A stretch of 44,730 nucleotides of DNA, taken from IMG/VR virus record IMGVR_UViG_3300043171_000105. One strand, given 5' to 3'. The notes beneath the pieces are model-generated. The model was given only the letters and a program-made list of their open reading frames with translations, was not told the origin of the DNA and did not search any database. How positions within the stretch are numbered: position 1 is the first letter of the stretch; each line of letters opens with the position of its first letter. Below are positions 7,721 to 44,730 of the stretch, in pieces. Position numbers and translations under genes: made by a program. The stretch comes from a virus.

Positions 7721-7839
7721 TGCTGACGCTGGATTGCAAGCGGGGTTCGAGACCCTGGGTAGATCGAGGATGATCCGCATCACTCACGAAGTGATATAAA
7801 AGCCGGTGCATGGTGGTTCGATTCCACCAGTCAGTACCA
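7721..7839 (+). ncRNA. Non-canonical tRNA-like element (T-arm, acceptor 3' strand, ACCA)
   Basis: 7812-7828 GGTGG/TTCGATT/CCACC, then AGTCAGT, A, CCA. Candidate 5' acceptor strand GCTGACG at 7722-7728. Internal hairpins at 7741-7757, 7762-7775 and 7779-7795. I could not fold a canonical cloverleaf. Confidence 0.5.
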
Positions 7840-15326: not shown

Positions 15327-15752
15327 TCATCGCTTATCCCACCTGGCAGGACCAATGGTTCTAGTATCGAAATGTACCCGATTGCTGTACCGACCCATGC
15401 CAAAGCGACCTGAGTATTCCTGCTCAAGATAATCAGCTACACGGTCAGGATCAATCTGCTCATTGGTGAATCGGTTGAACAGCTTGAAGTCAGCAGCACG
15501 ACCATAAATGTGCTGAGTCTTTGACGAGTACGGGACATAATCAGGATTATAATGTTTCTGCACTTTCTCATTGTGCTCCACGCACCGATTGGGACCAGTG
15601 ATCTTAATGCGAGCACTGATACCATCAACACCTTCAAAATGATGTACGCATTTCTGTAGAACTTCAACAAGCTCCACATCAACAGTGTCGAACCCGCAAC
15701 CACATTCACATGCGAATTCTGACCTGCTTAAATTTTTAGTTAAGTCACCCAT
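15327..15752 (-). CDS. Endolysin, peptidase M15 (zinc D-Ala-D-Ala carboxypeptidase-like) family
   Basis: FACECGCG, QHIYGRAADF (Hx6D) and RVHFD motifs. Confidence 0.8.
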   Translation of the reverse strand: MGDLTKNLSRSEFACECGCGFDTVDVELVEVLQKCVHHFEGVDGISARIKITGPNRCVEHNEKVQKHYNPDYVPYSSKTQHIYGRAADFKLFNRFTNEQIDPDRVADYLEQEYSGRFGMGRYSNRVHFDTRTIGPARWDKR

Positions 15753-16006
15753 TATAATTTAAGTAAAAACCCGCAATGGTTAAGTCCTGCTCCTTTTTCG
15801 GTTTTTGGAAATGAGCTAATATGCTCACAAAATATTACTGTTTCTTTTTCAGTTTCATATTCTAATCGCAAGATGCCAAGTGGGTCAGGGAGATCAACCT
15901 CCGGTTTAGCACTTTTCTCGTCGCTTAGAGATAGTCCGGCATAGAAACTGAAGTCTGCCATTACAGTGCAGGGTAGGAATAATAGGATGAATATATATTT
16001 ATACAT
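15752..16006 (-). CDS. Secreted or lipoprotein-like small protein (possible spanin component)
   Basis: N-terminal signal sequence MYKYIFILLFLPCTVMA with a Cys. Sits between the tail fibre and endolysin genes. Confidence 0.5.
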   Translation of the reverse strand: MYKYIFILLFLPCTVMADFSFYAGLSLSDEKSAKPEVDLPDPLGILRLEYETEKETVIFCEHISSFPKTEKGAGLNHCGFLLKL

Positions 16007-17307
16007 TAGTTTACATACTGAATAGTTACCCAGCCTCGGTTAAAAGAGGTGGCGTTGTAGTTTGGATCATCAAAGAGACCACTGGCATCCCTACCTAGTG
16101 TAATATCAGTTCCGTTATTATTTGGCGAGAAGTAGCCACCATTTTGTGTTGCATTACGATAATCTAGATTAGTGTAGAGTGAATTATCATCAGTACGGAT
16201 CATAACATTAATCGCTCGGATATTAGTCATTGTTAATCCATGCGCCACGTTAATTGCTTGGGTGGCATCCATATCCCAGTCGCCAATCTCTATAACTTTT
16301 GTATTTAATCCATTAAAACTTTTACCTACAAACTCGCCAGCAGCATTAACATGGGCATTTGACCCGCCAGCACCATCACCAAAAACAGTACCACCAGTAC
16401 CTTGATAGAAGCCTAAATAAACAGCATTTGCTCCAACATGACCTGATAGAAATAAGTGGTTATTTCCTGCTTTAATATTTAAGGGGGCTGACGATGTTCC
16501 AGTGACATCAACCAACTCTGTAAGGGTCTTGGCATCAAGCGTCTGAGCACCATCTTTCGTAGCACATTCTGCCAGAGCACCCTCTACCTCACCACTGTCA
16601 AAATTACCTGCTGTGTCATTTATCGTAATATCAACAGCTGCATTACTCGGATTAACAGTTGACCATGACGTTGTACCAAGATCATAAGTTCTAACAACAT
16701 TACTGACGTTATTCTTATACATCGCACCATCAATCAATGCGTTACCCTGGTTATCCAAAGTAGGGTCAGAAGATTTAGCACCGAGATATACAGTGATGAA
16801 CTCTTCATTCAACGTCACCACAGTAAGATCACCATCGACATCAAAACCCAGTATCTTATTGATACGATCAGCAGCAGCATCTGAGATAGTGAAATCACCA
16901 TCGACATCAATTGAATCTGATAATCCAAAATGACGAGCCATACCGTCGCGCAACTGTTGAATCAGGAAAGTAATATGATCCATCTGTGCTTCATGTACAT
17001 CAGGAAAGAATCCACCCTGTGATGCGAACTCAGTCAACTGGTTCTCAACACGATTCGATCTGATGTACCACTGGTAATCAGTTGGCAGATTCCCTGCAAC
17101 ACGTGTAATTAGACCACCGGCATCGATACCAATACCCGCAACAGTGTAATCTGTATCGACCGTTAGAATAGTCTGCACACCTGCGTCATCAGTTTCATAC
17201 ACTGACAGCTGAGTTTTATCTTCAACTCTGAATGTGTATGAATACTCAGCTGACGCACCGTTGCCTATATAAGGGCCAGATGTGATATTTGTTGTATTGA
17301 CAGTCAT
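16006..17307 (-). CDS. Tail fibre / receptor-binding protein
   Basis: 433 aa in the T7 gp17 position. The conserved-looking N-terminus (GPYIGNGASAEYSYTF...) is typical of podovirus fibre anchors. Gly/Asn/Thr-rich distal part. Confidence 0.7.
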   Translation of the reverse strand: MTVNTTNITSGPYIGNGASAEYSYTFRVEDKTQLSVYETDDAGVQTILTVDTDYTVAGIGIDAGGLITRVAGNLPTDYQWYIRSNRVENQLTEFASQGGFFPDVHEAQMDHITFLIQQLRDGMARHFGLSDSIDVDGDFTISDAAADRINKILGFDVDGDLTVVTLNEEFITVYLGAKSSDPTLDNQGNALIDGAMYKNNVSNVVRTYDLGTTSWSTVNPSNAAVDITINDTAGNFDSGEVEGALAECATKDGAQTLDAKTLTELVDVTGTSSAPLNIKAGNNHLFLSGHVGANAVYLGFYQGTGGTVFGDGAGGSNAHVNAAGEFVGKSFNGLNTKVIEIGDWDMDATQAINVAHGLTMTNIRAINVMIRTDDNSLYTNLDYRNATQNGGYFSPNNNGTDITLGRDASGLFDDPNYNATSFNRGWVTIQYVN

Positions 17308-17343: not shown

Positions 17344-20300
17344 CTACTCACGGCTAGGACCAAATAGTAACTCTCGGGTGGTGAACTCTTCACCATCTTC
17401 AATGACATCATATAAGTGCTCCCCGGTGGACCACATTTGATTGACTCCAGGGACACCGATACCCGCAGCAATCAGCTTGCTCACATTCTTAATCTGACCG
17501 AGGGTGATGTCTTCATCAGTCATAATGTTCTTAACCAGACCCTTGCCTGACGTGATGCCTCGCTCCATCATCGCAGCTACAGGGGTGGAATTGTAACCAA
17601 AGTCTGTGAATGCACCACTGGCAACATCCCTTACAAAAGGCACAGATGTCACAGGGTATAATGCTACCATTGTCAAAAAATTACTCATTCTCTCATCTTC
17701 ACCCTCTGGTTCATCCAGCTCACCGCGCATGAACATCTCAAGGAATACAGGTATGGTGAACAAGAACATCGCTTTAGCAGCTGCTGATGTTGGTGAATAC
17801 ACACCAGATTTAGTACCTCTTATCAGATCCCTTGTCAAATTACCCAATGAGCTGAAGAACGTCATAAACATGGTGAACGTGGTGTGTATTTTAGACTGAC
17901 TACGCATGATGCGTGCCATATCTTTAGTGGCACCAGAGCCTTGAGTATTTTCTAAAGTCACATCAGCAAAGTGAACAGCCTTAACTTCGTCACCATTCTC
18001 ACTCAGATGTTTATCATAAGCTGCGTGCCATGTGGGTAAGTCAACCATGTACACCTGAATCAATGCAATGTGCTTCATTGACACTTCTTGCACAGCTGCC
18101 AGTGGACCTGTCTTCTTACTTAATCTATTCATTGCATTTCGGATTTCACGATCCATTGTTTTAACACGATGCGGCAGAACCTTAGAACGCTCGTTTGCAA
18201 AATCCCAACCTGACTGCATATTTTCACGACTGCCGAGCAACTTGCGTATTGTTCTCATGTACCACGCATTACCAACAACAGCTTGTACACCCTTAACAGT
18301 CGGACCCACACCCAACTCAGCAGCAGTTGTGAATATGCCGAACAGCTGCATGATACCTGTTGTTGCTTTGAACCCCATTACACCGAGTGTGGTGCCAAAA
18401 CGTAACCGACCGAATGCTTCATCGATGTATGTCTTCACCGGTTGCTGTCTTCCATCCTTAGCAATGTCGTTCAACCAAGGTTTCAATTCTTTAAACTCAG
18501 CCTCACCCATGACAGCAGTGATCGCACTTGCGACATCAGGTGACTGTATAAGCCTGTTTACCTGGCGCACAGCATCATGGTGAGTGATGTAATGGATAGT
18601 CTCGTTGAAATGATCAGGTACAACCTCCATGCTGAGGTAGATTCGATCATAGAAACCAGTACGTTCATTAGTTGCACCGGTGTTCACCGATGACTGGATG
18701 CTGGCTGTGTTGTTGAACATCGATTCAGTCTCAGCTTCACGCTTCTCAGCGTTCTTCTCAGCCTTGTGACTGCGTTTCGGTGAGTATTTGACCGGATAGT
18801 AACCACCTTTGAATGTACCATGTTCAGTCACAACAGGGGTCGCTACAACCTTTGGTGGCACCAACCCAGTAGTACGACGGTGAACCTCAGCGAGTTGTGG
18901 GTATAGAGTATCCATTTGATCCCAAATCAACTGCACCAGCTCCCAGTCACTCTTCGTCATGTGTGCCAGCACAGCCTGTAACTTAGGATTGTCAATTGTG
19001 ATCTCAGCTTCATTCTCAGGGTCAGCCCAACCTTCACCGAGTAGTAACTTTTTCAAGTTACCCTGGTTACCAGTATTCAATGCAACTGCGAGAACCTGAT
19101 GACCTTGTAAAGTATCATCGATCTCAGGGATAAAGACCTTCGTGTTATGGCGTGCTGCATCTTCTTTGCTTCGATTATTGATAGCTTTGATTACTGGTGT
19201 AGCTACGTCATCAACCAGATTCATCTTAGCATCGAGCGCATCGGTAAACGGCTGAGTCAATATATCATGACTCATACCAACACGATCACCACCGTCGAGC
19301 CATGATGCAAGGAATGGGATCTTGGTGAGCTGTGATGCCCACCGTTGAATATGTTCAGACAGTGTTGCTTTGCGTGCGTCATCGATACGACTGCGACTTT
19401 CTTTAGTCTCGAAGCGTGCATCCTGTTCACTGATATGATCAATCCAGTTAGCCTTCAGCTTCTGGAACTCAATCTCTTCACCGGCTACTTTCAATTTATT
19501 CGCGTACCGGGCAACATGCTCGATGTTCTTCACTGAATCATTGACACCCTGTAAATCTGAGAATGGTATATTTTTCCAATGGGTCACATAGGATTCATTC
19601 AGCACAGCATTTGACAGCACCAGACCATCACCGTCGTTTTCCATGCGATCCTTCATCCACGTGTTGATGCTTTCAACTTCCTTTAGTGTAGCTACTTTTC
19701 TGAACTCAAAGCGACCGAGGATCTTAGTGATCTGATCCATGTAGCCGTTCTCAGCTTTCATTATTTCTTCACGTACTTTCTTCTTGTTGTACCGCGCCAT
19801 GCGATCAACAATTTTAGTGGTCTCGTTCTTTGCACTGGTTGCAGCCATGCCGAGGTAATAATTCATCACCTGACGCATCTTGGCCTCAGCCGCACCTTCT
19901 TTGTTACCCTCAGCCAACATGCGTGCAGATTCCTGCGCTGCTCTGATCTCAGCTTTACGGTACTTGCCTGGGTGGTTCTCACGGAACGATAAGCGACCGA
20001 TACGTTCTTCAGCCATTGCTTTAATTGTCGCACGATCAACAGTCGGTGCAGTTGTACCTTTAGCCAACATCTTCAATTCGTGCAGTATCAACTTACCACG
20101 TTCTTCATTCTGCACCGCTTCATCAGCTTCACGTTCAATGGTGCCATCGGTGAGGATATCACCGTGACGTTCAACCATACGAGCTTCAGCATTGACTTCA
20201 GCTTGAGCTTTGATAGTTGGAGCAGTGATCAGATCGATCAACATCTCTGAGCCTGATCCATAACCGAAGAAAGCAGCAGCTTCATCAGGGTGTACACCCC

Positions 20301-23300
20301 GCATACCTTTGGCTGTCATACCACGCAGTTCAGGGGGGACGATGACGGACTTGACATCACGCTTATCAATTTTCTCTTCACCCACCATCGCTTTGACAGC
20401 GGCATGGTCGATCTTGAATTCACCGTCGCGCAACTCAGTACGAGCTTTATAAATTTGCTCTTTACTCAGCGAGTCGAGTTCTTCATCGATGATGTCCTGC
20501 TTCTCTTCTTTCCACCACTTCTGAGTTTGGCGTGTCAGTTGTTTGATGATCTTATTGCGCAGAGTTTCAGACTGTACGTCTTTCACTTTCTCCTGACGCT
20601 TCTGATAATCAGCGAACTCATCTTCAGTCATACCTGCCATCGCAGCATTAGTGAACATCGGTTCAACTCGTGCGCGTGACTCAGCAGCCTGGATCTGTTC
20701 TTCAGTAGCAATCAGTCGGTCGAACACCTGACGCATCTCATCGTCAAGGTTCACGTCAAGCTGTTTACGCAGAGACTGGTAGATTCGTACAAGCCAGCGT
20801 GCGAATGCTCTGAACGCGTTACGCAACTCGATAGACGGTGCTTTACCTTCCATCAGATAAGTCTCGAAGCCACGTGCGAACTGCTCATGAACAGCACGAC
20901 GGATTGCTGCATCTTTGTCCTTGTTATCAGTGGTATTGTTGTCAAGGAATGTGATTACATCATCGGCGGTGATTTCAACTTTCTTCTTGTCAGTACGCTC
21001 ACCTTGTTTCAATACGTCAAACTCACCATCAACATAAGTCGTCGCCTCCTTCGCCACATCCTCAGCGTTACGCTTGTACCAGTTATTGATCGATTGGAGC
21101 ATCTCGGTATCACCGTTGACCTCCATCTCGTACATGAAGTGGGCGAACTCGTGCAGGAACGTACTCAGATCAGCAGCTTCAGTCAGACGGATGACACTGT
21201 TTGATGGGTCATAGTAGCCGCGTGCGACTTGTTCACCGTCGGTGCGTTGACGGAAGATGCTGGGGTCAGTGGGGTCGAATGTACCAATGTTTTCAACTGA
21301 TTTAATATTGGTCTTACCGCTGTCGAAAATATGAACGTGAGCAGTACCTGATTCAATGTTCATTGTTTCAAATCGAGTTTCTGCATTTCTCAGAATGATA
21401 GAATCAAAACCCATTTCTTCAATGACTTCAGCAATCAGCTGTGATTGAATTAACTCTCCAGTTTCAGGGTCATCTGCATACTGGTAGTCTTCACTTTCAC
21501 GTAGAAGATTTTCGATGGTCTCAGGCGTAGCTTCACCACCAAGCTCAAATACCTGACCAGAAAGGTTAGCAGCATCAACATCGTGACGATTTGAAATAGT
21601 TTGAATCGCTTCAATTAATTCATTAGGAGTTTCAGCTTCAATATCCCATCGAGCTTCATCAATATCAACTTGATAGCTATCAATGTTTTCATTAACTTCT
21701 TCAATAGTGACATCGTTGTTATCAGCAACCTGTTCAATAGCATTATTCTGAATTTCTTCATTGTCAACAAACTCAATCCATTCAGCGTTCTCCCCGATGA
21801 CAAACGGGTTGTCAACACGCACGAACAGTTCCATTGTTTGCTCTTCGCCACCTGACAGTTCTTGACGCACTACGTTTCTAGCAAATTCCATTGTATCTTC
21901 ATCATAGAATTCTTCACCGAAACGATCTTTAGCTGCATCGATACCTTCTTCATCAATGACATCCTGAATATCATCAACAACCTGTTCAGCACGTTGTTCA
22001 ATACGGTTTGTTAAATCTGGACCTTCACCTGCGTAATTATCAGAAGCATCACTCTCAGAACTAGTGAAGTAATTGATAGCACCAAACTGACCTTCAAGAT
22101 TTCCGCGTAACGCATCGAACACATCGAAATCATGAGTCGTACCGTGAAATACTTTGACTACCACTGGTGTATCAGCTTTGAACACGTGATCATTAATATC
22201 TTCAGGTTCTATTACTTCACCATCGCCAGACCATTTTTTGAACTCTTCTGTTTCAGTCGATACAATTTCAACAGGTGCCTGAGCAAACACCAAATCTTCT
22301 TCCAACTTAGTAACAGTCGCACCTTCAAACGCGATGATCCAGTTCAACCCTTCAACCAGTACACCGTCATGACCTAACTCCATCAGAGCTTCACGACGCT
22401 GCATAACCTCTTCAGCAGTGAGATCACCCAGCACATCAGCGAACACCTCAGCGTCAATGACAAGCGGGTTCTCAAGGGTGATTTCATGCACACTTAACTC
22501 GTTGCCGTAACGCTCAGCATTGCCGACATCATCGAATGAGAGATAGTGACCCAGGTTACCGGCTGGTGTTGTGGTGTTCTGACCTAGAAGACTGTCATCA
22601 AACTGAGTAAAGTCTTTAGGGGATCGGTGGGTGACTGTTACTGTTTCGCCTGCTTTTGCCCGGTTGAACTCGGATAGAGCTGCTGCGTCATCTCTGATTT
22701 TCGTTTCTGTGATAAGGTCTTGCCGGGCTTGCTGCTGGTCAACTTCTTCACGTCGTCTTGTAATTTGCTCATCTGTTATTACTCCGGGTTGTGCGAACGG
22801 TCTACGCCCTGCAAATTCAGCATTAACCATTCGACCGATTGATTGTTTTAATCCTGGCGATACTTCAAAATTTTCAATTTCTTCTGATAATGCGACACTG
22901 ATGGCTTGACTTGGAAAATCAAAACCTAACCAATTATCACGATCAAGCGCGTTAATGAACTTACGATAATCTGGACCAAATTCATCAGCAGCTTCTAATA
23001 CTTCATTAACTTCAGCATCTTCAGGTAACACATCGAGAAATTTGTCACGAGCAGATTCAAATATCTCAGGTGCATCTTTGTACGCAGGCTGCTCCAACAC
23101 CATCTCACCTTCAAGTCGCGCACGCTCACCGGTGAGTGGACCTTCAATAGTCAAACCTGAATCTTGATAAACCTGCTGCACAGTCTTACCTTGGCGGCGT
23201 GCCTGAGCTGTTGCCCACGCTGGGACGATCTGCGCCATTGTTGATGCATTAGCCGCGTTCACTTGACCTGAGTCGATCAGCTGATCACGAACCTGATCAT

Positions 23301-25011
23301 AGATCTCTTGAGCTTCAACGTACTCGCTGGTGTTCTCCTGAGCTTCCTCCATCAAACCCTTGATGTAATTGTCAGTCTCATGCTGCACCTGCTCCTGGCG
23401 GAACGGTGAAGTGGTCTGATCACTCATTGTCATGCTGTCACGCAACTCGGTGAAGTGGTCAGTACCTGCAATGTCAGCAGCAAAATCAGCAACAGGCACC
23501 TGGACATCAACACCCAGCGCAGCAGCTTCACGCGCCTGTTCTGACAGCAGCTTCAACGCAGGGTCAGCTTCAATCTCTTCAATGGTCTTGCTCTGAAGGT
23601 ACAATGATGTCTGAACACCATCAATGAACACGTGAGTATTATTCTCACCGTCAGCTTCACCGACGAATTGTCTAAATGATTCTTTGTCGCGTTCACGGAG
23701 TTTTGAGTCACTGACATTCTCATTAAGAGTGTCGATCTTCAACTGCTCATTCTCAGACAACTTATCACGCTGCCGTGTTTCTGCGATGACACTGGCGGTT
23801 GTACCAACACCCGCGAATATCAATGATGCTTGAGCACCTTTCTTACCAGCTTCAAGTACACGTTCACCAGTTTCTTCACTGAATATAGTATCCAGTGCAG
23901 ATGATAAATCCTGTTCAGTGAATGACTCTTCATCGATGTACTTAGCCAGTTCACCACCGATGACATTCGTGAATTCCTGTGCACTCTCGGTGACAGCTTC
24001 AGTAGCCACTGCGATGCCGTAGTCTTTCATCAAGCGAGTGATCATCGCGCGACCAGTCTCAGTACCCAGTGCTCTCTTCACTTTACTCTTAATCACAGCA
24101 CGCATACCAGGTGTAACGGTACGACCCAACGCAGCTAATGATATGAACTCTAACCCTGCGTTAATTCCACCGACTAGCGTAGCTGCACCACCTGCAACCC
24201 GTGGTGATACATAATTACCTTGTTCATCTTGTAATACAATAAACTCATTGAATGCCAGACCAGCTTCTAAGTCGAAAGCAGCTTTAGCAACACCAACGCG
24301 ACCTGATATTTTCGCAGCAGGTACACCGAGCGCAATTGCACCAGGTACAGCACCAACGCCGCCGAATAACACACCCCCAGCAGCACCAGTAGCACCGGCG
24401 ACAACACCACCTGCTGCTGCATAACCCAAACCGGTACGCAGTATCTCAAACATAATCGGCAACTGTTCTGCTGCTGCAACTGGCGCACCAACGAAGAATC
24501 CATATTCATCTGCGCCTTGTTTGGTTAGATCTTCAATTTCTTTTAATCGTGCGATCTGCTCATCAGTGACAACCTCATTTGCACCGAGCGACTGATACAT
24601 CCTACTTAGGCCGATCTCTGACGACTCGACCATGAGTTGCCCTTTCTCGAATGACTCTGCTATATCAACCCCGTATTCACTTACAGTTTTTAACCCATCT
24701 TCAATTAGCTGCATGACACCAATATCATCCTGGGCAACAACAGCATTGTCGAAGTTACTGAGGTATTTAGATGTAGCGGGGCTGTTGGTTGTTATGTCAT
24801 TGAAATCAATACTGTCAAGGTTGAATTTGTGTTCAACGCTCTCATCGACTGCGAACGGGGGTACATCAGTGTCAATCGACAACTGCTGAGTTTTAGCATG
24901 TTCATCAGGATTGATCTTCAGTGCTTCACTAAAATTCGATTCTAACAGGTTATTCTCATCAACCTGTTGTTCAACTTCACCGAACTGAACCTTACTCAAA
25001 TCAAAGGTCAT
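17344..25011 (-). CDS. Giant internal virion / ejection protein (T7 gp16 position) of polyvalent type
   Basis: 2555-aa uninterrupted ORF between the gp15-like and fibre genes. HEFAH zincin motif, two HxS/T...Y...E modules, Gly-rich and C-terminal hydrophobic segments. Confidence 0.9.
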   Translation of the reverse strand: MTFDLSKVQFGEVEQQVDENNLLESNFSEALKINPDEHAKTQQLSIDTDVPPFAVDESVEHKFNLDSIDFNDITTNSPATSKYLSNFDNAVVAQDDIGVMQLIEDGLKTVSEYGVDIAESFEKGQLMVESSEIGLSRMYQSLGANEVVTDEQIARLKEIEDLTKQGADEYGFFVGAPVAAAEQLPIMFEILRTGLGYAAAGGVVAGATGAAGGVLFGGVGAVPGAIALGVPAAKISGRVGVAKAAFDLEAGLAFNEFIVLQDEQGNYVSPRVAGGAATLVGGINAGLEFISLAALGRTVTPGMRAVIKSKVKRALGTETGRAMITRLMKDYGIAVATEAVTESAQEFTNVIGGELAKYIDEESFTEQDLSSALDTIFSEETGERVLEAGKKGAQASLIFAGVGTTASVIAETRQRDKLSENEQLKIDTLNENVSDSKLRERDKESFRQFVGEADGENNTHVFIDGVQTSLYLQSKTIEEIEADPALKLLSEQAREAAALGVDVQVPVADFAADIAGTDHFTELRDSMTMSDQTTSPFRQEQVQHETDNYIKGLMEEAQENTSEYVEAQEIYDQVRDQLIDSGQVNAANASTMAQIVPAWATAQARRQGKTVQQVYQDSGLTIEGPLTGERARLEGEMVLEQPAYKDAPEIFESARDKFLDVLPEDAEVNEVLEAADEFGPDYRKFINALDRDNWLGFDFPSQAISVALSEEIENFEVSPGLKQSIGRMVNAEFAGRRPFAQPGVITDEQITRRREEVDQQQARQDLITETKIRDDAAALSEFNRAKAGETVTVTHRSPKDFTQFDDSLLGQNTTTPAGNLGHYLSFDDVGNAERYGNELSVHEITLENPLVIDAEVFADVLGDLTAEEVMQRREALMELGHDGVLVEGLNWIIAFEGATVTKLEEDLVFAQAPVEIVSTETEEFKKWSGDGEVIEPEDINDHVFKADTPVVVKVFHGTTHDFDVFDALRGNLEGQFGAINYFTSSESDASDNYAGEGPDLTNRIEQRAEQVVDDIQDVIDEEGIDAAKDRFGEEFYDEDTMEFARNVVRQELSGGEEQTMELFVRVDNPFVIGENAEWIEFVDNEEIQNNAIEQVADNNDVTIEEVNENIDSYQVDIDEARWDIEAETPNELIEAIQTISNRHDVDAANLSGQVFELGGEATPETIENLLRESEDYQYADDPETGELIQSQLIAEVIEEMGFDSIILRNAETRFETMNIESGTAHVHIFDSGKTNIKSVENIGTFDPTDPSIFRQRTDGEQVARGYYDPSNSVIRLTEAADLSTFLHEFAHFMYEMEVNGDTEMLQSINNWYKRNAEDVAKEATTYVDGEFDVLKQGERTDKKKVEITADDVITFLDNNTTDNKDKDAAIRRAVHEQFARGFETYLMEGKAPSIELRNAFRAFARWLVRIYQSLRKQLDVNLDDEMRQVFDRLIATEEQIQAAESRARVEPMFTNAAMAGMTEDEFADYQKRQEKVKDVQSETLRNKIIKQLTRQTQKWWKEEKQDIIDEELDSLSKEQIYKARTELRDGEFKIDHAAVKAMVGEEKIDKRDVKSVIVPPELRGMTAKGMRGVHPDEAAAFFGYGSGSEMLIDLITAPTIKAQAEVNAEARMVERHGDILTDGTIEREADEAVQNEERGKLILHELKMLAKGTTAPTVDRATIKAMAEERIGRLSFRENHPGKYRKAEIRAAQESARMLAEGNKEGAAEAKMRQVMNYYLGMAATSAKNETTKIVDRMARYNKKKVREEIMKAENGYMDQITKILGRFEFRKVATLKEVESINTWMKDRMENDGDGLVLSNAVLNESYVTHWKNIPFSDLQGVNDSVKNIEHVARYANKLKVAGEEIEFQKLKANWIDHISEQDARFETKESRSRIDDARKATLSEHIQRWASQLTKIPFLASWLDGGDRVGMSHDILTQPFTDALDAKMNLVDDVATPVIKAINNRSKEDAARHNTKVFIPEIDDTLQGHQVLAVALNTGNQGNLKKLLLGEGWADPENEAEITIDNPKLQAVLAHMTKSDWELVQLIWDQMDTLYPQLAEVHRRTTGLVPPKVVATPVVTEHGTFKGGYYPVKYSPKRSHKAEKNAEKREAETESMFNNTASIQSSVNTGATNERTGFYDRIYLSMEVVPDHFNETIHYITHHDAVRQVNRLIQSPDVASAITAVMGEAEFKELKPWLNDIAKDGRQQPVKTYIDEAFGRLRFGTTLGVMGFKATTGIMQLFGIFTTAAELGVGPTVKGVQAVVGNAWYMRTIRKLLGSRENMQSGWDFANERSKVLPHRVKTMDREIRNAMNRLSKKTGPLAAVQEVSMKHIALIQVYMVDLPTWHAAYDKHLSENGDEVKAVHFADVTLENTQGSGATKDMARIMRSQSKIHTTFTMFMTFFSSLGNLTRDLIRGTKSGVYSPTSAAAKAMFLFTIPVFLEMFMRGELDEPEGEDERMSNFLTMVALYPVTSVPFVRDVASGAFTDFGYNSTPVAAMMERGITSGKGLVKNIMTDEDITLGQIKNVSKLIAAGIGVPGVNQMWSTGEHLYDVIEDGEEFTTRELLFGPSRE

Positions 25012-26666
25012 TATTTTGTCGCCTGTCTGTATGTACTCAGAATAGTGTCAATTGTCACAGGTTGATCACTTAATTTCAATAAATCCTTGACTTGAGTAAA
25101 CGACTCTTCACCATGTGCATCAACAAATTTACTCAACTCAGCAACCTGTTCAGGGCGTGCAGTCTTCAGATCAATATCAACGTCAGGCATGAGGTAATCA
25201 AACCCACCTAGTGAACGCTCAATTACGAATCTGCGACTATAATCAGCCAACAGTTCATCGATTTCACTGGGTGCAAGTTTACCACCCTTAATCTCTTCAG
25301 CATCTTCAATCGCACCCTGTACTGTGGTCATAAGCGTTTGTACTTGTGCTGATTTTGCCTTGTTACCTTTCCATGTTTTCTTCTTGCCGAAGAACTGTTC
25401 AGCAATCAAAGTGACCTTGTTGGCAGGGGTCTGTACCGATGTGACACTCTGACCCCTCTTTGCCTTGTCCACTGCCGACCGTAACTTAGATAAGTCAGCA
25501 GGTTTGAGCACATGAGTCCATTCAGCAGGGTTGACCTGCATCAATTGTTTACGTGGAAGACTTAGTAACTCATTGAATTTAATCTGATCGGTGGTCATGT
25601 GTTTACCAGCCAACAGATTGTTACGCTGCTGTGATGACATACCTTCCCATGCTTCAGCATTATTAGCTTTGAATGATTCAGTAGTACCACCACCGTTAAA
25701 ATGCTCTATACCCTGATCGTAAAACTCAGCTTCAATTTCTTTCTCAGCTTGAGTTTTACGGGTGTACTGTGTCATCGCTTCAGACATTGTTTTCTTACGC
25801 AGGTCAAGATCTTCAATCTTGTTGACTTCTTCAATGATGTCAGCTTTATTCTCATGCTGACCCACCAGCTTGCCAGCGGTGAGAGTCGCAGCACGAGCGT
25901 CAGATTCAGTCTTCTCAATCTTCGCTTTCTTCTCGACTAACCCTTCCAGCTTCACTTTGTCCGGGCCTTCTAATCGTTCACCGTAGGATTCCAGTGCCTG
26001 CTTACCCTCAGCAGCACTACTTTGTGTAGCAGCCTCGACAGTGGATTTAGCGAACGATGATTCAAATGTTTGCAGCTTCTCAGCTTTAGCTTCAGGACTG
26101 TCGCCCATCAAGTCAGACGCATCGATAATAGCCTGACGACCGAGTACATTCTGCACTTTTAATCGATCAGGTTCATTCCAGTATAGTGATGCGTTTTCAA
26201 TTGAGTTCTCAACCTGTGCCTCAATGGTGGACACTTCCCAGGCTTTGAGACCTTTGGCAGAATGTCTGCTGATGTCAACCTGACCACGCGTGATATGAGC
26301 GTCAGCAGCGCGGTCGAACATCTGTTTAGCTTGAACACCAAGGGTTTCCCCGTATTTCATCTTCAGATCATCCAGAGCCTTTGTAGCGGCTGCTGAATTA
26401 TCATAAGCATCACGACCTTGAGAGTTAAAGTACCCACTGTCAGGGTTGAAGAACATATCATTTTTATCACGCTCAAAATTAACGACAGCTTCTTCAGCTG
26501 AGGTGGTGTCAACACGCTGTTTGAGCTGTAAACCTGATCGAACCACGTCGGTCAGCCCTTTAGCAATAGCACCACCGAACGCACCTGGTGGAGCATCTTG
26601 AGCAGTCGGCTGTGATACTACTTGAGTCTGTACTTGTTCAGGTTGGTACGTTGCTATTTTTGGCAT
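25011..26666 (-). CDS. Internal virion protein (gp15 position)
   Basis: 551 aa, Ala/Lys/Glu-rich and helical. Assigned by synteny. Confidence 0.65.
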   Translation of the reverse strand: MPKIATYQPEQVQTQVVSQPTAQDAPPGAFGGAIAKGLTDVVRSGLQLKQRVDTTSAEEAVVNFERDKNDMFFNPDSGYFNSQGRDAYDNSAAATKALDDLKMKYGETLGVQAKQMFDRAADAHITRGQVDISRHSAKGLKAWEVSTIEAQVENSIENASLYWNEPDRLKVQNVLGRQAIIDASDLMGDSPEAKAEKLQTFESSFAKSTVEAATQSSAAEGKQALESYGERLEGPDKVKLEGLVEKKAKIEKTESDARAATLTAGKLVGQHENKADIIEEVNKIEDLDLRKKTMSEAMTQYTRKTQAEKEIEAEFYDQGIEHFNGGGTTESFKANNAEAWEGMSSQQRNNLLAGKHMTTDQIKFNELLSLPRKQLMQVNPAEWTHVLKPADLSKLRSAVDKAKRGQSVTSVQTPANKVTLIAEQFFGKKKTWKGNKAKSAQVQTLMTTVQGAIEDAEEIKGGKLAPSEIDELLADYSRRFVIERSLGGFDYLMPDVDIDLKTARPEQVAELSKFVDAHGEESFTQVKDLLKLSDQPVTIDTILSTYRQATK

Positions 26667-26669
26667 GGT

Positions 26670-27194
26670 TTATAGACTCAGTGGTGCTGGGTTTTTCGTT
26701 ATACCTGCGCTATTCGGTGTAAACCATTTATCAGCCACACCTGTGTCTAATACATCAGCAGTGCCACCGAGTATTGTACCAAACGCTTGCTGTTGACCAG
26801 CTGATTCAGCGAATGCACCTTGCTGACGGGTCAAACCTGCACCAGTCTGCAATGATTCAACCTGTAATTGAGTATTACTGCGAATACGCAGTGCGTCAGC
26901 TTCACCGAGTGTGAGTGTATCTTCCTGCAATTGTAGAGCTGAACCTGACTCTAACTCAACCCCGGCAGCACCTAGCTGTGCTCTCTGTTTAGACAACAAC
27001 TCAGCGGTTTTACGGCGTTGGATATTCTCAGCTTCAGTACCAGCGCGTCGTGTTTCCTGAGCTTGATTCTCAGCTACACGGGCATTATATTCGGCAGTAC
27101 CTTTTCTGAATTTACCTTGAGCACGCTGACCTTGATATGCCATAGCTGTTGACGCTACAGTCATGACAGCCATTATTGTTGTTGGTTCACACAT
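26670..27194 (-). CDS. Internal virion protein (gp14 position)
   Basis: 174 aa. N-terminal hydrophobic helix followed by a Gln/Ala-rich coiled region. Assigned by synteny. Confidence 0.6.
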   Translation of the reverse strand: MCEPTTIMAVMTVASTAMAYQGQRAQGKFRKGTAEYNARVAENQAQETRRAGTEAENIQRRKTAELLSKQRAQLGAAGVELESGSALQLQEDTLTLGEADALRIRSNTQLQVESLQTGAGLTRQQGAFAESAGQQQAFGTILGGTADVLDTGVADKWFTPNSAGITKNPAPLSL

Positions 27195-27664
27195 CAGTCG
27201 GATCTCTCAAGATAGAATTTATGGAACAACTCACCCTCGCACCCGTACTCAACAGGGTCACCAAGTGTGAATCCGATCCGTTTAAGCCATTTGATGCTGA
27301 CCTTATTCTCAGTGTGTACATAGTTGAACAACCTCGGACATACAGTCAGCATTTCGTTAATTATTTCAGGAACCTGTATTAAAAAATGACGCTTGTATTT
27401 CAAGGCACCATCAGTGCCAAGCAACCACGGAACCCCTGTACCCGTTAATATATCACGAATTACCAGCCCTAGCACTACACACGGCACATCGTTCACGACA
27501 ACGACAACTGTGTAATCTGATATCTCACACCCATCTAACAGCGCACTAAGTGGTGTGAGATGACCTGAAGCCCATATCTCATCAACATCAGCCTGGCGCA
27601 TATCAGCTGCAACAGCTTCGATAAGCTCACGAGTGGGCTTGAGAAATTTAACTCCCGCCGACAT
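27194..27664 (-). CDS. gp13-position protein, possibly acetyltransferase-fold (T7 gp13/DUF2833-like)
   Basis: 156 aa. Synteny plus a general resemblance recalled from memory; the function call is weak. Confidence 0.45.
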   Translation of the reverse strand: MSAGVKFLKPTRELIEAVAADMRQADVDEIWASGHLTPLSALLDGCEISDYTVVVVVNDVPCVVLGLVIRDILTGTGVPWLLGTDGALKYKRHFLIQVPEIINEMLTVCPRLFNYVHTENKVSIKWLKRIGFTLGDPVEYGCEGELFHKFYLERSD

Positions 27665-29972
27665 CTACGCTCGGAATCACTGATAAGATTGCCATTGGCA
27701 ACGGTGCTCGTTGTTCAATGCGAACTCCGCCGCCTTTAGACCATAATGGTTCAATGACAACTTCTTGTTTGTATGTTCTCAATGCAATAGCATCATAAGC
27801 ATCAGCTTCAAATCGAGGTTTAATTTCATGGAATATGACATCTTGACCACTGGTTGCATCTTGGCGTGGTCCAACGAACCCACCACGTGTACCTTCAACT
27901 TCAATGAATACTTTAGAAACAGACACTGAACGAGCCTTCAATGAGTCAGAGGGTGATGCTATGTCAATATCAAGCATCTCGATAACAGGTGTATATGGTA
28001 GACCGACATGCACCTTAGACGCTTCACGATCCAGTGTGATAGAACCACCTGATACAGTCTTACCTTCAACAACATAACCATCAGCAAGCACAGCTACAGC
28101 CTCACCTTCAAGGTGATCAAGTCCACTGATGACCGTAGCCGGTGACCCGTTATAAGACAACCCTGAATCAACATAAAAAGCATCTTCAGCGACCTTACTC
28201 TCACGCTTCTCAAGACGTTCAACGTATCGTACAGTGTTACCGTCAATTGTTCTTTTAACTATCGCATACAACGCATCACGACCGTCTTCACTGATCGTTG
28301 CTATAGATTCAAACTCACCATCAGTAACATGGTGGTGCCAACCCCACACCTGGTGCTCACGTTGGTAAGTAAGACCGAGCAGTACCCCATCATTACGAAC
28401 ACACCATAAGATTCCGTACGGCTCGTTAGAATAAGCCATTTCAATAACTTCATGATCTTCAAACAGATGCTCAGACATCAATGATAAATCGTTACCTGTA
28501 TATTTATCATTGCTGAACTCATACCCCAGGTCACGAATGCGTGCACCTTTTTCCTGTAGATACAACACGGTACTGTTAATGATCACAGGTTTAACCCATG
28601 ATGCGCCATTGTATGATTGAGGACGGACACCGATGGTTGATGGGGTGAGAACTCTGTCTTGACCTTCACTCACCAGCCACTCGCCGCCTGATGTAAGTAA
28701 TATCAGCGAATCTAAAGATATTATGTGTCGGATTTCATTTACCTGTTGCGCTGCAATAGTAAACGTCACAGCATCATCATCGCGTGCAGGTTTAGATGTT
28801 CGCAATGAATTGAAATTATTAACCTGGGTGGTATATGTTGCTTGAGGTTCATTATTCGTATTAGCGAATATTTGACGTTGCTGATAATAATTTACAGCAG
28901 CAGGTTTGTTATCTGCGCCAGCGAAGGATTGTCTGTCTTCAGGAGGGGCATCACTGGTGATAGGTGCGATGTTATAATCATCAAAAGAATTATTGCTAGA
29001 ATCACCAATCCACCCGTACACATCAGTATTGTTCGATGGGTCTTTATAAATACGATAATAATCAGCACCACTGACCGCACCCCATTCAATGCGCACACCA
29101 CCAGTGACTGATAACGAATCAGTGATAACAGATGCTGCTGATGATGCTAGGGATTCTATCCCTGACTCATCAACTGCTGTCACTACATAAGTGTAAGTTT
29201 TTTCAAAATCACCAAAGCCAGAACCAACTGTTGTCGCACTGTTCTCACGAGTAGCAGTACCACCTGATGTGTACGCAGTGTGACCTGTAGAGTCTTCACC
29301 ATCGAGTTCAATGTGATCGGCATCCACTACTGTGATCCTGAATAACCTATCATTAACCTCAACCATTCCTACAACATTTTCAATAGTGGTTAGGTTACCT
29401 GTTACAAAACCATGCCCCACAGCAGTCACAACAGCTGGGTTAGCCTGTGAAATACCAGTTATAACTTTGACTGTCGCACCTGAAAAAGCCGGTGCAGTGA
29501 CAGATGATGAATAGTCAATATCAGTTAATGTCCAGTTATCATCAGCAAGGCGATTCAGATTCGCAGGGTCATGGTCAGGATGAACAATGGTCATTACATC
29601 TGCTGATTGAGTGAAACCTAATCTCGATAACTGTACTTCAGTGTAGGGGGTGACCAATTCAAAAAGAGCTGGACCAGCACCATCGAGTACATACCCTCCG
29701 TTTTTAATGACTCGCATTTTCAAATGCTCAAAATGCAATATGTACGTTTGCTCAGTGCTAAAACTGAATGGTATGAGTTTACCTACTTTTGAATGGTCGT
29801 CAGATTCACCGATGAACTTGAACCCGGGGCGTGAATAAACACCACCCTGCGCACGTACGAAGAAATTCTCACAGAGGTTAAGACCTGTTGAATATTTAAC
29901 GATATCAGCACGAGACTGTAAAGATGGTGCAATCTCACCAGATGTAAAACTGCGTTGGATAGTCTGTGGCAC
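27648..29972 (-). CDS. Tail tubular protein B / nozzle-like protein
   Basis: 774 aa directly after the gp11 homologue. N-terminus SFTSGEIAPSLQSRADIVKYSTGL...RPG parallels the T7 gp12 N-terminus. Confidence 0.7.
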   Translation of the reverse strand: MPQTIQRSFTSGEIAPSLQSRADIVKYSTGLNLCENFFVRAQGGVYSRPGFKFIGESDDHSKVGKLIPFSFSTEQTYILHFEHLKMRVIKNGGYVLDGAGPALFELVTPYTEVQLSRLGFTQSADVMTIVHPDHDPANLNRLADDNWTLTDIDYSSSVTAPAFSGATVKVITGISQANPAVVTAVGHGFVTGNLTTIENVVGMVEVNDRLFRITVVDADHIELDGEDSTGHTAYTSGGTATRENSATTVGSGFGDFEKTYTYVVTAVDESGIESLASSAASVITDSLSVTGGVRIEWGAVSGADYYRIYKDPSNNTDVYGWIGDSSNNSFDDYNIAPITSDAPPEDRQSFAGADNKPAAVNYYQQRQIFANTNNEPQATYTTQVNNFNSLRTSKPARDDDAVTFTIAAQQVNEIRHIISLDSLILLTSGGEWLVSEGQDRVLTPSTIGVRPQSYNGASWVKPVIINSTVLYLQEKGARIRDLGYEFSNDKYTGNDLSLMSEHLFEDHEVIEMAYSNEPYGILWCVRNDGVLLGLTYQREHQVWGWHHHVTDGEFESIATISEDGRDALYAIVKRTIDGNTVRYVERLEKRESKVAEDAFYVDSGLSYNGSPATVISGLDHLEGEAVAVLADGYVVEGKTVSGGSITLDREASKVHVGLPYTPVIEMLDIDIASPSDSLKARSVSVSKVFIEVEGTRGGFVGPRQDATSGQDVIFHEIKPRFEADAYDAIALRTYKQEVVIEPLWSKGGGVRIEQRAPLPMAILSVIPSVDVGGS

Positions 29973-29975
29973 CGC

Positions 29976-30629
29976 TTATCTCCTAATGGTTTCAAACTCA
30001 CTTAGTGGAGGTTCATTGTACTGATCATTCAAGTCATTCGCCAGAGCAGCATTTAAGTATTCTTTGTACAATTGCAGGTTGTCATTGCGAAACTGCCGAC
30101 CTGTTTCAGCACCTACAATCGGTATCGCTAAATGAGCAGACAGCAGCATGGCAAGTGCCATGACGAAATCATCAGTGAATAAGTTCGGATCGGTTACTTT
30201 TACCGCGTAGTCAATTCGCAACTCAGACTCGTTAGCACCAATTGTTTTATTGTTATCGAAGTTGAACACCTCATAAGGAACTTGAGGTCGTAAGTCTTTC
30301 AATGGTAACAGTTGACTATCAAGTAATCTTGACACTACACCAGCATCTGCGTTCAGCAACTCTTCATGAGCACCAACTAAACGGTGAATCTTTAAACAGT
30401 CAGTAGGATATTGGTATGCGTAAGCCCAGTTAAATATCTCTGTTGTTAATACAGATAGTGCTCTAATCTTACGATTGAATCCCCAACCTTCAGTCAATAA
30501 TCTATCACGTAGAATAGGGTATTTAAGTTTACAAGTCTGTGCCTGTAAACTACCCTCAGTAAGAGAGTTGATACTCCCACCGCGTATATCAGATAATGCT
30601 AAATTGCAGATTTCAACTTCACTTGACAT
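29976..30629 (-). CDS. Tail tubular protein A / adaptor (T7 gp11-like)
   Basis: ICNLALSDIRGGSINSLTEGSLQAQTCKL...LLTEGWGFN aligns by eye with T7 gp11 [29 protein letters not shown]...IQSRGWTFN. Confidence 0.8.
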   Translation of the reverse strand: MSSEVEICNLALSDIRGGSINSLTEGSLQAQTCKLKYPILRDRLLTEGWGFNRKIRALSVLTTEIFNWAYAYQYPTDCLKIHRLVGAHEELLNADAGVVSRLLDSQLLPLKDLRPQVPYEVFNFDNNKTIGANESELRIDYAVKVTDPNLFTDDFVMALAMLLSAHLAIPIVGAETGRQFRNDNLQLYKEYLNAALANDLNDQYNEPPLSEFETIRR

Positions 30630-44566: not shown

Positions 44567-44730
44567 AGATAACTGCCAAGCCTACCAGACCTCCACTGGT
44601 GACTTCATCTGCAACAGGTGTGGTTACCAGTGGGATCGTGACGACACAGCACCACCGTGTAAGGACACCACTGCGAAGGCGAGTCAGTACACCAGGGATA
44701 AAGAGATGGTTAAGATTAAGGGGTTGTTGA
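44547..44730 (+). CDS. N-terminal part of the junction-spanning Zn-ribbon ORF (continues at 1-132)
   Basis: GTG 44547 is in frame with nt 1-132 across the duplicated end. 62 codons in total on the circular unit. Confidence 0.6.
   Translation, partial: MKNTHSEDNCQAYQTSTGDFICNRCGYQWDRDDTAPPCKDTTAKASQYTRDKEMVKIKGLL
44604..44730. repeat. Terminal duplication, copy 2 (identical to 1-127)
   Basis: Direct comparison of the sequence. Confidence 0.95.

Follow-up and report, generated by a model that had tools for sequence, protein, structure and literature searches.

What a phage gains from a 2,555-amino-acid (aa) protein in the place where T7 encodes gp16 is the question raised by IMG/VR virus record IMGVR_UViG_3300043171_000105. 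In the window analysed, which is the whole 44,730-nucleotide stretch, the coding sequence of this protein (hereafter the giant ORF, for open reading frame) occupies 17344..25011 on the minus strand. The boundaries proposed in an earlier sequence-only reading were confirmed, with an ATG start, 2,555 aa and the stop codon included. Because bases 1-127 are identical to bases 44604-44730 (127 bases), the window is read as a closed circular assembly with a non-redundant genome of 44,603 bp, of which the giant ORF takes up 17.2%, in line with the estimate of about 17% made before. The sequence-only reading described the product as a polyvalent ejection protein in which two ADP-ribosyltransferase (ART)-like modules and an HExxH zincin form a central effector block between hydrophobic ends. 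On sequence evidence, its identification as a polyvalent internal virion (ejection) protein in the T7 gp16 position appears essentially right. The reading developed here, to which a joint probability of roughly 0.7 is assigned, is that the source is a BPP-1/epsilon15-type marine podovirus, that the giant ORF is its large internal virion protein, and that this ejection protein is built as a conserved carrier with a cargo bay from which ART effectors would be delivered.

A conserved carrier with a variable bay

Mapping by BLASTP and phmmer against relatives shows three parts in the predicted protein, with a variable cargo bay (aa 643-1262) set between an N-module (aa 1-642) and a C-module (aa 1263-2555). 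In BLASTP comparisons with six phage homologues, aa 1 to ~642 are conserved (37-41% identity to Vibrio phages), as are aa 1252-2555 (~65% identity to Vibrio phages and 29% to BPP-1), and aa 643-1251 find no match in any of the six. The junctions on either side of the bay abut in Vibrio phage MZH0603. There, the N-/C-module junction string is ...GERARLEGEQVLTQP|DTSGARGYYDPSNSIIRLTE..., so that GERARLEGEQVLTQP is followed immediately by DTSGARGYYDPSNSIIRLTESADLSTFLHEFGHFMYEME; the same two motifs stand 620 aa apart in the giant ORF, which is the length of its bay. Among 87 family members, the distance from the end of the N-module to the HExxH domain ranges from 4 to 448 aa, and it reaches 889 aa in Carin1.

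The content of the bay varies as widely as its length. It is empty in MZH0603 and in the family members P0020 and P0057. In other members, Pfam places RadC, PBECR5, zeta toxin, GGDEF, Kinase-PolyVal, PBECR1 or LPD3 in the bay; GNAT domains also occur in the bays of relatives, and a ParB_N match in the bay of another member scores under the Pfam cut-off. ART-PolyVal is found in 26 of the 120 listed family members. In members of 3,200 aa, LPD22 and ART-PolyVal occur alongside long cargo, most of which matches no Pfam family. As part of the reading given above, the bay is proposed to be a recombination hot spot with interchangeable effector domains.

The N-module (23086..25011, minus strand) is 37-41% identical to the N-terminal part of four Vibrio phage proteins. 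Weaker partial matches are observed by BLASTP in BPP-1 Bbp10 and Carin1 gp32, and phmmer finds the module in most family members, with its end at about aa 600-650. Near its start lies an LPD22 domain (aa 29-111, 24679..24927, minus strand; Pfam PF18834, E 3e-15, 56.6 bits against a cut-off of 28.6), which occurs in most of the listed homologues. A Gly/Ala-rich hydrophobic patch follows at aa 170-300 (24112..24504, minus strand), with Kyte-Doolittle peaks of 1.3-1.8 and 20-27 Gly plus Ala residues per 50 aa (41 in aa 201-300), and a further hydrophobic segment is present at aa 392-410. The patch is a candidate membrane-active region.

The C-module opens with the predicted zincin-like HExxH domain (aa 1263-1450, 20662..21225, minus strand). 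The giant ORF has a single HExxH, at aa 1287-1291. Each full-length homologue likewise has one, ~1,190-1,280 aa from its C-terminal end, or 1,400-1,480 aa from it where a second insertion, described at the end, is present. In a 43-sequence alignment that reaches down to 25% identity, H1287, E1288, H1291, H1375, E1376, A1379 and E1383 are invariant; the motif pair of the C-module is HExxH...HEQFARGFE, with an invariant downstream HE..A...E pattern. In the AlphaFold2 (AF2) model, the predicted local distance difference test score (pLDDT) of this domain is 88-97, and both motifs lie in confidently modelled helices, the arrangement expected of the zincin-like metallopeptidases (MPTase) of polyvalent proteins, where a helix following HExxH provides a Glu ligand. 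Judged from this alignment, the HExxH zincin motif is real and under strong constraint. Because the domain is conserved family-wide and lies in the C-module, it appears to be part of the carrier and not a swappable effector. The earlier claim of an HExxH zincin in the effector block therefore holds for the motif, which is single and invariant, but not for its place, which is in the conserved C-module.

The remainder of the C-module is a predicted all-helical body (aa 1451-2555, 17347..20661, minus strand; PHROG 9880). Modelled by AF2, aa 1356-2555 are almost wholly helical, with a mean pLDDT of 81.7 and a predicted template modelling (TM) score of 0.65. Towards its end lies a cluster of hydrophobic helices (aa 2205-2465, 17617..18399, minus strand), in which Kyte-Doolittle peaks at aa 2209-2227, 2406-2432 and 2442-2463 coincide with AF2 helices. 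Thus both hydrophobic regions named in the sequence-only reading, Gly/Ala-rich at the N-terminal side and helical at the C-terminus, are real by Kyte-Doolittle analysis. This body has no counterpart among solved structures in the searches made: the C-terminal AF2 model found no fold match in the PDB with Foldseek (best E 0.69), the whole protein found no match to PDB sequences at E<=1 with phmmer, and the 43-sequence profile found only chance matches among PDB sequences, to designed helical repeats. The authors of the PhiXacm4-11 study likewise report no solved-structure match for the 2,300-aa gp35 (bioRxiv 10.64898/2026.02.16.706137). Among predicted viral structures in BFVD, 83 matches are observed at E<=1e-3, and the best 50 of the 83 are almost all C-terminal pieces of giant phage proteins. 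The names of the BFVD matches follow the cargo: ART-PolyVal-like, N-acetyltransferase, nuclease, MuF C-terminal domain and UDP-GlcNAc kinase.

Run exhaustively with the last 1,200 aa, HMMER retrieves 10,599 cluster representatives at E<=1e-3, of which 5,676 remain at E<=1e-30. In the best 150 of the 10,599, the C-module is always C-terminal, and total lengths run up to 3,540 aa. With a family range of 1,900-3,540 aa, the 2,555 aa of the giant ORF are mid-range; the statement that it is about twice the size of gp16 is true, but this size is normal for the family and not exceptional. The protein contains no cysteine, against ~23 expected from the other large ORFs of this phage, and cysteine is also absent from nearly all of its homologues.

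Cargo units of the bay

The bay of the giant ORF is filled by three predicted cargo units. In a Pfam search with the whole ORF, ART-PolyVal is matched over aa 780-1100 (E 3e-13, 51 bits against a cut-off of 31.2), and domain-wise searching again places ART-PolyVal above the Pfam cut-off. The active site of this family is defined by Iyer et al. as a His in strand 1, a Tyr in strand 2 and an Asp in strand 5 (PMC5512222); it belongs to the H-Y-[DE] clade of the ART superfamily (ART-PolyVal / Tox-ART-HYD2).

Unit 1 (aa 643-743, 22783..23085, minus strand) is small and all-helical, bounded by LEQP (aa 639-642) and FAQP (aa 739-742). It is modelled by AF2 as helical with pLDDT 78-95, and searched alone it matches no Pfam family. 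Unit 2 (aa 744-913, 22273..22782, minus strand) consists of a charged linker and a divergent ART-like module, ART1, and ends in FAQAP (aa 909-913). The triad of ART1 would be H795, Y823 and E896, residues that are invariant among seven homologues. By hhalign, the last (C-terminal) strands of ART1 and ART2 are in register (E 8.5e-4, probability 24%), so that E896 faces D1230 in the alignment. A profile of ART1 found nothing meaningful among PDB sequences. ART1 is probably a divergent ART-PolyVal member.

Unit 3 (aa 914-1262, 21226..22272, minus strand) contains ART2, which can be assigned with confidence to ART-PolyVal from its own Pfam match (PF18760, E 2.7e-9, 38.3 bits against 31.2). Its predicted triad is H956, Y981 and D1230, the first two of which fall in strands of the AF2 model. 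A subfamily signature, NYAGEGPDLTNRIE, occupies aa 992-1005 of ART2, which also contains a large helical insert (~120 aa). Stand-alone homologues of the ART2 unit occur as metagenomic proteins of 380-470 aa (P0003-P0009). These keep the NYAGEGPDLTNRIE motif and an invariant His two residues ahead of the last strand, and some of them end in a Gly/Ala-rich hydrophobic tail.

Each of the three units stands alone in other family members, and the cargo is therefore read as a concatenation. Unit 1 is present separately in P0002, P0011, P0015, P0098 and P0016, and unit 2 is found alone in P0014, P0016, P0017, P0039, P0059 and P0010. In P0016, units 1 and 2 (aa 601-913) are matched at 69% identity and run straight into the C-module. 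Unit 3 is 64-65% identical to the sole cargo of P0037 and P0095. The three-unit combination is absent from all other retrieved proteins, the best match to the central block being 47% identical over 58% of the region. In the giant ORF, the joints between units fall at the short LEQP, FAQP and FAQAP linkers. The GC content at third codon positions is 0.21 in unit 1, 0.29 in unit 3 and 0.44 in unit 2, compared with 0.42-0.47 in the carrier; the low values of units 1 and 3 fit their recent acquisition, and this pattern points to cargo units that differ in origin or age.

The central region (aa 643-1450) was modelled by AF2 from an alignment of contiguous fragments. The model has a mean pLDDT of 74.8, with well-folded units joined by low-confidence linkers. 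PADLOC finds no defence-system family in the cargo or in the HExxH domain.

Delivery, the HExxH domain and the alternatives

LPD22 and ART-PolyVal both score above their Pfam cut-offs, which makes the giant ORF a polyvalent protein as Iyer, Burroughs, Anand, de Souza and Aravind (2017) use the term, and as the sequence-only reading had suggested. With the proteins described there it shares LPD22, ART-PolyVal, the HExxH hub domain, a place among late virion genes and the combinatorial domains of its relatives, and nothing essential differs. The interpretation offered in the sequence-only reading is in this respect supported, all computational tests that bear on it having come out in its favour.

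The proposed mechanism is as follows. The head core would hold a few copies of the protein, along with the gp14-like protein and a 551-aa muralytic protein from the gp15 position. At infection, they would pass out by the tail in a loosely folded state, in the manner of cysteine-free 'beads on a string', and the carrier's hydrophobic segments would contribute to the DNA conduit by engaging the inner membrane. The ART cargo would then reach the cytoplasm and ADP-ribosylate host targets ahead of any phage gene expression. In this scheme, the in-cis HExxH domain may free the cargo by cutting the linkers between units, or it may serve the carrier in some other way.

The likeness to T7 gp16 lies in layout. 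Both proteins follow gp14 and gp15 and stand ahead of the fibre, both lack cysteine, and both have an N-proximal Gly/Ala-rich hydrophobic patch (aa 328-412 in T7) and C-terminal hydrophobic helices. T7 gp16 differs in its 1,318 aa, its N-terminal lytic transglycosylase and its lack of cargo enzymes. As was noted before, the giant ORF has no transglycosylase motif, and no transglycosylase or lysozyme family is matched in it by Pfam or PHROGs; a muralytic-like domain lies on the 551-aa neighbour here, whereas in T7 it lies in gp16 itself. Zero cysteine is also common to T7 gp15 and gp16, N4 gp50 (3,500 aa) and gp51, BPP-1 Bbp11 and the 551-aa partner. Three independent features, namely the absence of cysteine, the hydrophobic layout and the order of parts, the last as in the virion RNA polymerase of N4, link the giant ORF functionally to proven ejection proteins. 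For the delivery of enzymes, internal virion proteins are said to host domains bound for the cytoplasm (Hardies et al., PMC4819975), and T4 Alt, an ART carried in the head that enters the cell along with the DNA (PMC5512222), is a precedent; Alt differs in belonging to the R-S-E clade and in not being part of a conduit protein. A large polyvalent protein, phi24B gp47, has been detected in virions by proteomics (bioRxiv 10.64898/2026.04.10.717836).

Several results weigh against this reading and are given here with the alternatives on which they bear. In the HExxH domain, the strands ahead of the motif are modelled by AF2 with low confidence. No Pfam peptidase family is matched above threshold, the best being DUF6782 'putative metallopeptidase' at E 0.024; no zincin is among the PDB matches found by Foldseek, for which the query was an 808-aa multidomain model; and a profile of the domain found nothing meaningful among PDB sequences. 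Of all steps in the mechanism, what the HExxH domain does is the least certain, and linker release, a periplasmic function, a host-directed protease or a structural role are the options. An HExxH peptidase-like domain lies next to the virion RNA polymerase (vRNAP) of N4 (PMC5512222), and this protein is reported to be packaged unprocessed (PMC5512222), which makes autoprocessing by HExxH speculative. Since the domain is also present in members with an empty bay, linker release would be only one of these options.

The first alternative builds on these points. In it, the protein is ejected, the cargo stays tethered, and the HExxH domain is a murein or periplasmic peptidase, a host-directed effector protease or a structural zinc site. 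Such a role would suit a domain that belongs to the invariant carrier and is kept even when the bay is empty. In addition, the authors of the phi24B study propose a murein-degrading metallopeptidase in gp47 (bioRxiv 10.64898/2026.04.10.717836), the N4 vRNAP retains HExxH yet is reported as packaged unprocessed (PMC5512222), and the N4 C-terminal domain has been reported as an allosteric regulator of the RNA polymerase (PMC13434306). Against it, the 551-aa neighbour already supplies a muralytic-like domain, Pfam finds no similarity to murein peptidase families, and the cargo units are bounded by [FLIVM][AE]Q.?P linkers that are 8-fold enriched in bays. These linkers are present in ~20 of 87 proteins, mostly close relatives, and may for this reason be mere inheritance, so that processing sites are no more than a hypothesis. 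Taken together, this alternative is considered somewhat unlikely.

A more far-reaching version of the carrier-and-cargo reading sees the carrier as a general protein-injection chassis, remotely homologous in BPP-1-like and N4-like phages. Its bay would lie directly ahead of the HExxH domain and take in nearly any enzyme; in this phage the cargo would be two ready-made ARTs for anti-defence or host takeover, comparable to AcrIF11 or Alt, which the in-cis zincin would free at [FL][AE]Q(A)P linkers once ejected. The N4 vRNAP has been described as an N-terminal domain that probably spans the membrane, the RNA polymerase, and a C-terminal domain composed of the HExxH-containing C1 and of C2, ~110 kDa of helices without a recognised fold (PMC13434306). 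N4 gp50 shares with the giant ORF a Gly/Ala-rich hydrophobic N-terminal part (aa 118-365 in N4), cargo, HExxH, ~1,100 aa of helices and a hydrophobic end. It is packaged in the head and ejected, as is proposed for the giant ORF. N4 differs in its cargo, which is an RNA polymerase and not ARTs, in its family, Schitoviridae, and in the gene order around gp50. The HExxH segment aligns in register with N4 C1 (hhalign probability 40%, E 3e-4), and the full profile gives a second match to the N4 C-terminal domain (probability 24%, E 8e-4), which lies 289 residues past HExxH here and 302 in N4. Both matches are weak, and hhalign against the single N4 gp50 sequence gave nothing; their collinearity suggests, and does not establish, remote homology of the two carriers. 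As a whole, the chassis proposal is doubtful.

The relation to gp16 is subject to similar reservations. hhalign of the 43-sequence profile against T7 gp16 found nothing (probability 0.2%), and the C-terminal model remained unmatched even though the T7 ejectosome entries 7K5C and 6YT5 predate the cut-off of the PDB library. Hardies et al. (2016) listed BPP-1 Bbp10 as a remote homologue of IVP-D (gp16; IVP, internal virion protein) by way of chained hidden Markov models (PMC4819975), and this gp16-Bbp10 homology (PMC4819975) was not reproduced here. Because no similarity is detected, membership of the gp16 family would rest on position and on the chained models of Hardies et al.

A second set of observations concerns the ART modules. 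Two had been claimed; ART2 is above the Pfam cut-off at 38.3 bits, but ART1 alone (aa 775-913), with ART-PolyVal as its top Pfam match, reaches 17.6 bits (E 0.007) and stays below threshold. The triad Asp of ART2 is replaced by T, A or P in several stand-alone homologues, so the subfamily may use other chemistry or a modified active site. Among PDB entries, 6KYF comes closest to the central AF2 model (Foldseek probability 0.98, target TM 0.45), a match with an E of 0.11 for which the aligned part of the query is not given. This entry is AcrIF11, a small ADP-ribosyltransferase of phages that switches off type I-F CRISPR-Cas (PMC12421852). Residues H20/Y46 and D146/E147 are required for activity in one homologue, as is D115 in the protein of the 6KYF structure (PMC12421852). 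The 132-aa AcrIF11 is a free ART that is expressed after entry, whereas the ARTs of the giant ORF are embedded in a carrier.

These observations leave room for a purely structural ejection or conduit protein, whose ART-like modules have decayed into spacers or assembly domains that do not catalyse, and whose bay varies through drift and recombination and has no effector function. The low score of ART1 and the varying triad acid of ART2-type homologues agree with such decay, members with an empty bay (MZH0603, P0020, P0057) are evidently viable, and the cargo of the 3,200-aa members is mostly without a Pfam family. However, both modules retain the His, the Tyr and the acid here, with all three invariant across the seven ART1 homologues, ART2 passes the Pfam cut-off, both modules are well folded in the AF2 model, and the same bay holds GGDEF, zeta toxin, Kinase-PolyVal, RadC and PBECR nucleases above threshold in relatives. 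We therefore regard a purely structural protein as improbable, and delivery of ART cargo by a conserved carrier remains the preferred reading.

A literature search on the virion proteomics of BPP-1-like phages gave no readable data for a close homologue. The notion that the giant ORF is no virion protein at all but a late cytoplasmic or lysis-associated one, which this lack of readable proteomic data and the names 'lysin', 'lysis protein' and 'crystallin beta/gamma motif' in BPP-1, Caulobacter, Octadecabacter and cyanophage GenBank records would allow, is scarcely credible, given that the ORF matches no muralytic, holin or crystallin family, that the phage has its own M15 endolysin (15327-15752), that the ORF lies, apparently translationally coupled, inside the operon of tail and internal virion proteins, and that its cysteine-free composition is common to proven ejection proteins.

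The concept of such proteins is not new. Polyvalent, head-packaged, injected effectors and IVP-D homologues with cytoplasm-destined domains were published in 2016-2017; the giant ORF is typical of this large, already described class, and the Pfam families used here derive from that work. What is added is the map of a carrier with a single bay, the reassignment of HExxH to the carrier, evidence of recently concatenated cargo, the cysteine-free signature common to T7 and N4 ejection proteins, and perhaps a distant link with the carrier of N4 vRNAP. Experimental work on this giant-protein lineage was not found. Injected effectors are one route by which a phage may act on its host ahead of its own gene expression, and polyvalent proteins were predicted in 2017 to deliver effectors into the host. 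The family resembles a natural experiment, in which one carrier, in more than 10,000 sequence clusters, has one bounded bay that is empty or variously loaded. It would be convenient for testing protein injection by podoviruses, including cargo delivery, the targets of the ARTs and release by HExxH, and it points to a chassis that could bring proteins of choice into Gram-negative cells. If the chassis proposal were true, the phage would disarm the cell before transcription starts.

Gene neighbourhood and relatives

The order of gp11- to gp15-like genes, giant ORF and fibre described in the sequence-only reading is borne out by PHROG and Pfam synteny, with the gp14 homologue confirmed by Pfam. 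On the minus strand, the gene order opens with the large terminase, portal, protease/scaffold and major capsid protein, followed by the tail tube genes. These encode a tail-tube-A-like (gp11-like) protein (29976-30629) and a tail-tube-B-like (gp12-like) protein (27648-29972). An E1_FCCH-type domain is matched at aa 178-242 of the latter (27648-29972, minus strand; Pfam 35.7 bits, cut-off 29.5), and the same odd annotation is present in the records of related Vibrio phages. Next on this strand are a gp13-like gene (27194-27664), which scores 21.2 bits in Pfam, under the cut-off of 25, and matches PHROG 308 'internal virion protein' at E 4e-38, and a 174-aa internal virion protein of the T7 gp14 family (26670-27194; Pfam PF24072, 32.8 bits, cut-off 27; PHROG 418).

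The gene in the gp15 position (25011-26666, minus strand) encodes the 551-aa protein, which is itself free of cysteine. It matches PHROG 1044/10475 'endolysin' at E 5e-23. The endolysin-like region is its N-terminal ~230 aa, and this region matches genes annotated 'lysozyme' in Nostoc, Microcystis and Cobetia (Carin1) phages. To judge from these matches, the gp15-position protein of this lineage seems to have the muralytic function that in T7 belongs to gp16. The 551-aa gene ends in a TAA stop that overlaps the start codon ATG of the giant ORF (TAATG), which suggests translational coupling of the two genes. Inside the giant ORF, a promoter and terminator scan found no surplus of promoter-like sites and only weak terminator-like matches, and thus nothing points to separate expression of its parts. 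The ORF is followed by the tail fibre gene (16006-17307, minus strand), in which aa 1-120, a T7 gp17-type N-terminal adaptor, match tail and tail-fibre PHROG families. Downstream of the fibre lies the small peptidase M15-family endolysin (minus strand), and because this endolysin is separate, the 'lysin' label of homologues of the giant ORF is unlikely to be right. No family match supports either 'lysin' or 'crystallin beta/gamma motif' as a name for them. A single tRNA gene, tRNA-Arg(ACG), is present on the plus strand (7754-7839) in the early/replication region.

A tblastn search of phage genomes retrieved 53 records. The closest are Vibrio phages MZH0603, 1.021.A/B/C, 1.185.O and PS25B.1; farther matches are Carin1, BPP-1 (Bbp10), Pseudomonas phages AF and HU1, Xanthomonas CP2-like and Caulobacter phages, and some cyanophages. 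In all six genomes examined, the homologue has the gp15-position gene on one side and the fibre or spike genes on the other, and homologue lengths in the phage comparison are 1,902-2,854 aa. Bbp10 and its relatives (Xanthomonas CP2 / PhiXacm4-11 gp35, Pseudomonas AF, Carin1 gp32 and the Vibrio phages) are true homologues, with C-modules 29% (BPP-1) to 66% (Vibrio phages) identical over ~1,300 aa. Like the giant ORF, most have the N-module, and they have HExxH at the same position and no or almost no cysteine; Bbp10 also has comparable C-terminal hydrophobic segments and an N-proximal Gly/Ala-rich patch. They differ in cargo, which is missing in MZH0603, a GNAT-like unit plus one more in 1.185.O, and a PBECR1-like sequence in BPP-1.

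A second, smaller insertion site is observed inside the C-module, ~240 aa past HExxH, where 150-220 aa are added in a subset of relatives. The carriers are Vibrio phage 1.185.O (protein aa 1330-1478), P0013, P0028, P0041, P0082, P0084, P0086 and P0087, and in the phage studied here this site is empty. In GenBank, Bbp10 is named only Bbp10 or 'crystallin beta/gamma motif-containing protein'. Its bay (aa ~610-700) contains GPFGPVLRDFQGDAKGAIAKLLEMKSGEAIGALHHPDIGDIDLVWG, a motif string that recurs almost unchanged in the PBECR1-positive bay of P0113, and from this likeness BPP-1 probably carries a PBECR1 RNase as cargo.

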